Shown here: one piece after another, positions 43,104 to 43,597 of the stretch
How the letters are laid out: every line of letters starts with the position of its first letter
Numbering within the stretch: position 1 is the first letter of the stretch
Origin: Shigella phage sb1
Direction: 5' to 3' (one strand)
DNA length: 64,000 nucleotides
Sequence record: PQ666539
Made by a program: the position numbers and the translations under genes
Notes under the pieces: model-generated
What the model saw: the letters and a program-made list of their open reading frames with translations, nothing else
The model's database searches: none
What the model was told of the DNA's origin: nothing

Positions 43104-43597
43104 AAAGTTTTAATAACCTCTATAATATCGTCTTTAGAAAGACCGTTAATTAAAATATGATGTTCAGCAGGAGATTTAGAAATTTTAAAGCATGCCTAAA
43201 CATCTTCTGCCATATCCGATGCGCTACGATTTGGATTACTAATTCCAAGAAGATGTTTTCCCGTTAAAGGATTAACGATGATATAGCATTTACAGTTGTT
43301 GATATGAACATTAGGTTGAGTCTGATTAATGAACACATCACAATCATATTTCGCAAGCTGATTTTCTAAAAAGACTTTCATCTACTCAACCTCATCAGGA
43401 AGCATATCAAGGGCTTGCTCAAGACGACGATTTCGATATTCTTTAATGGTCGTTTTCCGCTTGACTTGCTTAGCTAAATCTTTCTTAAGATCGGTGATAT
43501 ATCCAACTCGACGATTTCCTTTAAATACAGAAATCCCATCTGTAGTATCACCGTATGCTTCAACGACCATCTCAGTAGTAATAAGCTGTAAATCCAT
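43094..43597 (-). CDS. alc: Alc (host transcription unfolding/termination protein), interrupted by in-frame TAG at 43382-43384 and 43196-43198 (minus strand)
   Basis: Three same-frame pieces (71, 61 and 33 aa) plus the two stops total 167 codons, the T4 Alc length as I recall it. Confidence 0.65.

Follow-up and report, generated by a model that had tools for sequence, protein, structure and literature searches.

Two in-frame TAG codons in the alc gene of a T4-like phage sequence very probably stem from a window-wide G:C>T:A artefact

Early in T4 infection the Alc protein stops host transcription on cytosine DNA, while the phage DNA, which contains hydroxymethylcytosine, is still transcribed. 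Forcing T4 to produce DNA with cytosine, as in strains of the T4 GT7 type, selects for mutants that have lost the function of alc. T4 Alc ends transcription by the host RNA polymerase on cytosine-containing DNA (PMC12115623). The gene is dispensable, and alc mutants have been classic laboratory tools (PMC12115623). Substitutions of the C>A/G>T type have been documented as an artefact of oxidation that arises when libraries are prepared (Costello et al. 2013, PMC3616734), and the 8-oxoG artefacts arising in libraries are found at low allelic fraction, in a low percentage of the reads (PMC3616734). In the DNA analysed here (the window, i.e. the whole stretch of 64,000 nucleotides) the alc gene is interrupted by two in-frame TAG codons, and the comparisons described below relate these codons to changes of the G:C>T:A type that are spread over the entire window.

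The window is an ordinary segment of a Tequatrovirus (T4-like) genome extending from gp14 to gp37, and its closest public relatives are the Shigella phages sb2 and pSs-1, to which it is ~96% identical. The alc gene, whose product is the inhibitor of host transcription on cytosine-containing DNA, is located on the minus strand at 43094..43600 and consists of 168 codons plus a TAA, with the two TAGs inside. The gene order is pseT.3 - alc - rnlA, all on one strand, and the window is colinear here with T4, pSs-1, sb2 and SholemSchwarzbard. In the annotated genomes alc is a single CDS of 507 nt (sb2, pSs-1 and SholemSchwarzbard) or 504 nt (T4). When the conceptual translation of the locus, with X at both stops, was compared with Pfam family PF17527, residues 2-167 matched positions 1-176 of the 177-position profile (E = 4e-86, 287.5 bits, cut-off 25). 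The translation also matched PHROG 1253 ('inhibitor of host transcription') with E = 1e-77. Taking into account that piece 1 of the interrupted gene corresponds to profile positions 1-74 and piece 2 to positions 76-143, the pieces are successive segments of a single ALC domain. The assignment of the three ORF pieces to one gene, alc, which had been made by a sequence-only reading of this DNA, is thus supported by PF17527, by PHROG 1253 and by synteny.

Translation of the minus strand from 43606 to 43050 gives MMDLQ...LDMLPDEVE, a stop, MKVFLENQLAKYD...MAEDV, a second stop, and ACFKISK...KTLCN followed by the terminator. Piece 1 (43385..43600, minus strand) has 72 codons and belongs to the ORF 43382..43600 (72 aa, ending in ...LDMLPDEVE), which stops at the TAG in 43382-43384, seen as CTA on the plus strand. 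Piece 2 (43199..43381, minus strand) has 61 codons starting with the native Met74; its ORF, 43196..43381 (61 aa, beginning with MKVFLENQLAKYD...), abuts piece 1 in frame and stops at the TAG in 43196-43198. Piece 3 (43097..43195, minus strand) contributes 33 codons, after which comes the native TAA (43094-43096). The earlier statements that an in-frame TAG at 43382-43384 interrupts alc, and that the following ORF begins in frame with the very next codon, were therefore correct. The pieces and the two stops add up to 72+1+61+1+33 = 168 codons if counted from the first ATG; the previously given sum of 167 codons, equal to the length of T4 Alc, holds when counting begins at the second ATG, where the T4 annotation places the start (CDS of 504 nt). 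An exact-protein look-up with the 72-aa piece 1 gave no match on record. At the DNA level, an exact 48-mer was absent from the contigs of viral, metagenome and genome collections, and megablast gave no match among E. coli genomes or plasmids. The recorded locus does not contain a single uninterrupted ORF of ~167 codons, and the gene as written would be unable to yield Alc. As recorded, the locus is either a pseudogene or a sequence-error copy, and it is much more likely that an intact alc has been misrecorded.

Comparison with T4 alc, the check proposed by the sequence-only reading, revealed a colinear single gene with GAG at both affected codons. Codon 73 (the TAG at 43382..43384, with C>A on the plus strand at 43384) and codon 135 (the TAG at 43196..43198, with C>A on the plus strand at 43198), both read from the minus strand, are GAG (Glu) also in pSs-1, sb2 and SholemSchwarzbard, and alc is intact in each of the four phages. 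Relative to sb2, alc of the window differs at seven bases, six of which are G:C>T:A changes: R64L (43410) and A70E (43392) in piece 1, E73*, R117L (43251) in piece 2, E135*, and Q156K (43135) in piece 3. The four missense changes are private to the window, and the six transversions account for all amino acid differences from sb2 Alc.

To place the locus among known phages, positions 43000-43700 (a 701-base query) were searched by megablast against 50,697 phage records. Matches were obtained with 497 Tequatrovirus-type records, in 496 of which a single place extends over 80% or more of the query. Among the best 40 of the 497, those that are annotated have one alc-sized CDS, named host-transcription inhibitor or terminator, or 'hypothetical protein'; two or three separate small genes, the arrangement that would have spoken against an interrupted alc, were not seen in these annotated records. 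None of the 497 records exceeded 98.3% identity over 43000-43700, and of the 12 mismatches with sb2, the best match, 11 were G:C>T:A. A natural polymorphism common to other phages was rejected as a candidate on these grounds.

The adjacency of the ORFs raises the question of a truly split alc, in which piece 1 ends at the TAG and piece 2 is re-initiated at the adjacent ATG (native Met74). The junction, GAGGTTGAGTAGATG, has a Shine-Dalgarno-like GAGG at plausible spacing, eight bases upstream of the ATG. This GAGG is, however, created by the window-specific A70E change, which is itself part of the G:C>T:A noise, and the ATG is the native Met74 codon present in all relatives. Moreover, the second stop follows 61 codons further on, with no start codon in alc after it. 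The gene is unsplit in the four aligned relatives, no split occurs in the annotated records among the best 40 of 497, and since all 497 matching records are at most 98.3% identical, none has the private changes of the window. A functional split of alc is hardly credible in the light of these observations.

Premature stops were also found in many other genes. In the 77 genes colinear with pSs-1 there are 33 such codons (26 TAA, 4 TGA and 3 TAG), which fall in 23 genes, and six genes have two or more. Codon-by-codon comparison with pSs-1 was made for 29 of the stops, and the ancestral codons were GAA (15), GGA (4), GAG (3), TCA (3), TAC (3) and TTA (1). The four further stops, all in gp34, derive from TCA, GAA, GAA and GAA/GAG. 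Both neighbours of alc are affected: pseT.3 (Rz-like spanin; 42750..43103, minus strand) is broken by GAA>TAA at 43017-43019, and rnlA (RNA ligase 1; 43662..44786, minus strand) contains three stops (GGA>TGA at 44391, GAA>TAA at 44238 and TAC>TAA at 43665). Stops are present in the genes of the small and the large terminase subunit (gp16, and gp17 with two), the tail sheath gp18, the scaffold gp22 (two), the major capsid protein gp23, gp51, gp27 (two), gp29, gp48 and the ssDNA-binding protein gp32 (near 53210, from GAA), and in the tail-fibre genes gp34 (four), gp35 and gp36. Most of the broken structural, terminase and gp32 genes are essential by established T4 genetics, thus plaque formation would be impossible for a phage of such genotype. 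One explanation covers the two TAGs of alc and the stops in rnlA, pseT.3, gp17 and nrdA.

Some of the affected sites differ in detail. In nrdA the adjacent GAA GAA of codons 124-125 (48397-48402, minus strand) is replaced by a tandem TAA TAA; these are two G>T events three bases apart and part of the general noise. Codon 274 of gp23 (11617-11619) is TAA derived from TTA, i.e. by a T>A change outside the G:C>T:A class, which shows that other error classes are also present at a lower level. The terminator of gp51 (22053-22055) is CAA in the window vs a stop in pSs-1, so that the stop is lost where gp51 meets gp27; gp51 is the only one of the 77 genes without the conserved terminator. Apparent frameshifts in 30.7 and cd.4, encountered in the mapping of pSs-1, proved to be alignment or annotation differences and not breaks in the window.

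The load in alc was compared with that of the window. The gene has 20 sites able to become stops, for which 0.25 nonsense changes are expected at the window rate (P = 0.025 for two or more), and it contains six G:C>T:A changes vs ~2.2 expected. As the set comprises 77 genes, and at least two stops are present in six of them, the P value of alc is unremarkable. The two ambers and four missense changes in 168 codons, above the window average (P ~0.025), could nevertheless suggest a laboratory or naturally selected alc knockout, in which the TAGs are ambers propagated on a suppressor host. Against this, the genome is not that of T4 (~91-95% identity in aligned blocks, vs 96.5% to sb2), the TAA and TGA stops in essential genes are beyond rescue by an amber suppressor, and the alc stops arose by a GAG>TAG transversion. 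Classical T4 mutagens (base analogues, hydroxylamine) induce transitions, and the resulting ambers come from CAG or TGG. The transversion origin, the non-T4 backbone and the TAA and TGA stops together exclude a classical amber mutant, and the knockout explanation as a whole must be considered extremely unlikely.

The same set of stops bears on suppression or recoding, by which TAG or all stops would be read through to give full-length proteins from alc and the other genes. It is in line with this explanation that both alc stops are TAG, are in frame and lie in an otherwise well conserved gene. However, all three stop codons occur internally in the numbers given above, and 76 of the 77 genes still end at conserved positions (TAA 53, TGA 19, TAG 4), so that the pattern of stop-codon reassignment, one stop used internally and avoided as a terminator, was not found. 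The replaced codons encoded Glu, Gly, Ser, Tyr and Leu, which no single decoding rule fits, and the accompanying missense changes are without sign of selection. ARAGORN detected no tRNA genes in the 64-kb window; the tRNA cluster of T4 lies outside the region that the window covers. The internal use of all three stops, the kept terminators and the lack of a tRNA gene in the window exclude recoding or suppression, and we give this explanation practically no chance. The two alc TAGs are 2 of the 33 premature stops produced by a window-wide, unselected G:C>T:A process, which is specific neither to alc nor to TAG. Of the sequence-only reading of the TAGs, the part that stands is the splitting of alc by two in-frame TAGs; a special significance of these codons (amber, readthrough or recoding) is not supported, as 33 stops occur window-wide.

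In gene content the window was compared with sb2, pSs-1 and T4. Two full-length tandem paralogues of alt (RNA polymerase ADP-ribosyltransferase) are located on the minus strand at 27925-29982 and 29986-32040. The copies are ~68% identical in DNA and are arranged as in sb2 and pSs-1, whereas T4 has one alt and the alt.-1/alt.-2 remnants. The nrdB (45277-46455) and td (49329-50189) genes are contiguous, without introns, and the window has no counterpart of the T4 homing-endonuclease genes segD, segE, segG, mobE, I-TevI and I-TevIII. The introns and homing-endonuclease genes are likewise absent from sb2 and pSs-1, and their absence explains the gaps left when the window is aligned with T4 (57.8 of 64 kb). 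The hoc gene (15349-16767, minus strand) has 472 codons vs 376 in T4 and contains an internal repeat (15911-16215 vs 16199-16503; ~305 bp, ~78% identity), which is common to sb2 and pSs-1 and is consistent with an extra Ig-like domain. Compared with sb2 and pSs-1, gp67 is shortened in frame by 15-18 bases (~8793-8807). The deletion is situated in an acidic, GAT/GAA-rich stretch and looks like natural repeat-length variation. The homologue of the pSs-1 DUF2774 gene (15039-15223, minus strand) lacks a single T at ~15061-15065 compared with sb2 and pSs-1. This deletion, which is among the very few window-private indels, shifts the frame near the end of the gene.

For the analysis of the substitution spectrum, a change was defined as private if, in the whole-window alignment, the window differed at a position where sb2, pSs-1 and T4 all agree. 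Over 1..64000 there were 1011 private substitutions, 283 (28%) of which were G:C>T:A; the corresponding share was 12.6% for sb2, 5.0% for pSs-1 and 6.3% for T4. With sb2 and pSs-1 as the only references for polarity, the number of G:C>T:A sites is ~357. On the plus strand the changes were symmetric (143 C>A vs 140 G>T). They were present in each 4-kb bin of the window, with a moderately overdispersed density (variance/mean ~1.7). On average ~1.2% of G/C sites were changed, and the values ranged from 0.5 to 1.7% across all 16 trinucleotide contexts. The 8-oxoG artefact reportedly favours the CCG context (CCG>CAG). No strong trinucleotide context preference was detected for the G:C>T:A changes of the window, in which CGG, the equivalent of CCG, was changed at 1.4% vs the mean of 1.2%, thus the classical CCG-context signature is not seen. 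Long-read indel noise, e.g. from nanopore reads of glucosyl-hmC DNA, is unsupported as an explanation, since the window has only a handful of private indels.

The record of sb2 (PQ666540) has split annotations of its own tail sheath and gp34 (L003, 5740-7563; L004, 7696-11565). These, together with its somewhat raised G:C>T:A share, suggest that the sb2 record also has sequence-quality problems.

Selection was assessed in 73 colinear genes, which contain 222 private G:C>T:A changes and 474 private transitions. Of the coding G:C>T:A changes 75% were missense, 11.7% nonsense and 13% synonymous, compared with 79%, 12% and 9% expected at random, and they were distributed as 88, 71 and 63 over codon positions 1, 2 and 3. 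The private transitions, on the other hand, were 81% synonymous, with 77% at third codon positions, which is the usual mark of divergence under purifying selection. The G:C>T:A changes are thus unselected, as their effects and codon positions match the random expectation. The random-like G:C>T:A changes and the mostly synonymous transitions show that the private substitutions form two layers, one of normal divergence from sb2 and pSs-1 and, superimposed on it, one of unselected G:C>T:A changes.

When 8-oxoguanine mispairs with A, the characteristic outcome is G:C>T:A. Judged from the sequence, the alc TAGs are very probably an oxidative-damage-like sequencing or consensus artefact and not biology. 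The data show the mutational class, its even spread, the absence of selection on it and the fact that essential genes are broken; a technical cause (damage, sequencing or consensus) rather than mutation in a replicating phage is inferred. Substitution noise of a single class, G:C>T:A, would then overlie a normal Tequatrovirus segment, and both alc TAGs (GAG>TAG), as well as the four alc missense changes, would have been produced by it. Guanine oxidation may have led to 8-oxoG, which pairs with A to give G:C>T:A, or an equivalent read or consensus error may have had the same result. Such errors could have been fixed through a low-coverage or low-input assembly, or because a few damaged molecules were amplified. 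A green-channel-type miscall would be an alternative error source, although this is speculation. From the presence of the changes in the consensus without context enrichment it follows that coverage was very low, that low input was amplified or that the errors had another source. Points that count against an artefact are the consensus level of the changes, the unenriched CGG context, the overdispersion of ~1.7, the six changes in alc vs ~2.2 expected and the T>A stop in gp23. If the artefact explanation is correct, alc is most likely intact in the underlying phage and would act as in T4.

The consensus level of the changes would be explained also if they were real mutations in a dead genome. 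In that case one or a few DNA molecules (a single particle or very low input), whose guanines had undergone oxidation, either environmental or from an oxidising treatment, would have been amplified, and the lesions would have been fixed as G>T on copying, without ever being part of a replicating lineage. Unselected, strand-symmetric G:C>T:A changes at ~1.2% of G/C sites and few indels fit this explanation, and it accounts for changes seen in the consensus, unlike classical library artefacts, whose allele fraction remains low (PMC3616734). From the sequence alone, however, it is indistinguishable from a technical artefact, and we consider it unlikely. Nothing but the point at which the damage became fixed separates the two, and the verdict on alc is the same: it is no functional split gene.

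A biological origin of the G:C>T:A load, in which a Tequatrovirus genome would have undergone hypermutation in vivo and the dead-end molecule would have been recovered, is improbable to a still higher degree. Hypermutation of this kind could be caused by guanine oxidation in the host or the environment, or by incorporation of A opposite damaged G. If it did occur, the window would document how a phage underwent oxidative 'lethal mutagenesis', and the slightly above-average count in alc would be due to chance only.

The interruption of alc is most likely no genuine biological feature, and it serves chiefly as a warning. Its TAGs ought not to be presented as amber codons, as recoding, as a split gene or as evidence of an alc-null phage. 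Gene calls, pseudogene counts and in-frame-stop findings obtained with the window are all affected, by 33 stops and ~170 spurious missense changes. If the sequence was taken from a public record, resequencing or polishing of that record is needed.

In comparison with known systems, the locus is closest to T4 alc (NP_049838; PF17527; PHROG 1253), with which it shares the place between pseT.3 and rnlA, the strand and the length of 167/168 codons. Its conceptual product differs from Alc of sb2 and pSs-1 at six positions only and matches the profile over the full length. Unlike T4 alc, it has two in-frame TAGs (E73* and E135*), accompanied by four missense changes private to the window, and all six belong to the G:C>T:A type. 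An in-frame TAG in a T4-family gene is found also in T4 am mutants and in the alc mutants of dC-DNA strains (e.g. T4 GT7), but the phage studied here is not T4, its TAGs come from a GAG>TAG transversion and 30 TAA/TGA stops are present elsewhere, including essential genes. Phages with reassigned stop codons (TAG or TGA recoding, as in some gut phages) likewise have in-frame stops in conserved phage genes; in contrast to these, the window has all three stops internally and all three still as terminators, contains no suppressor tRNA, and shows the replacement of five amino acids. The published oxidation artefact occurs at a low read fraction, whereas the changes in the window are in the consensus, at ~1% of G/C sites, and are without clear context preference, in contrast to the CCG preference that is said to characterize the artefact. 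With the oxidation artefact described by Costello et al. (2013, PMC3616734) the window shares the substitution class, the symmetry on the reference strands and the absence of biological selection.
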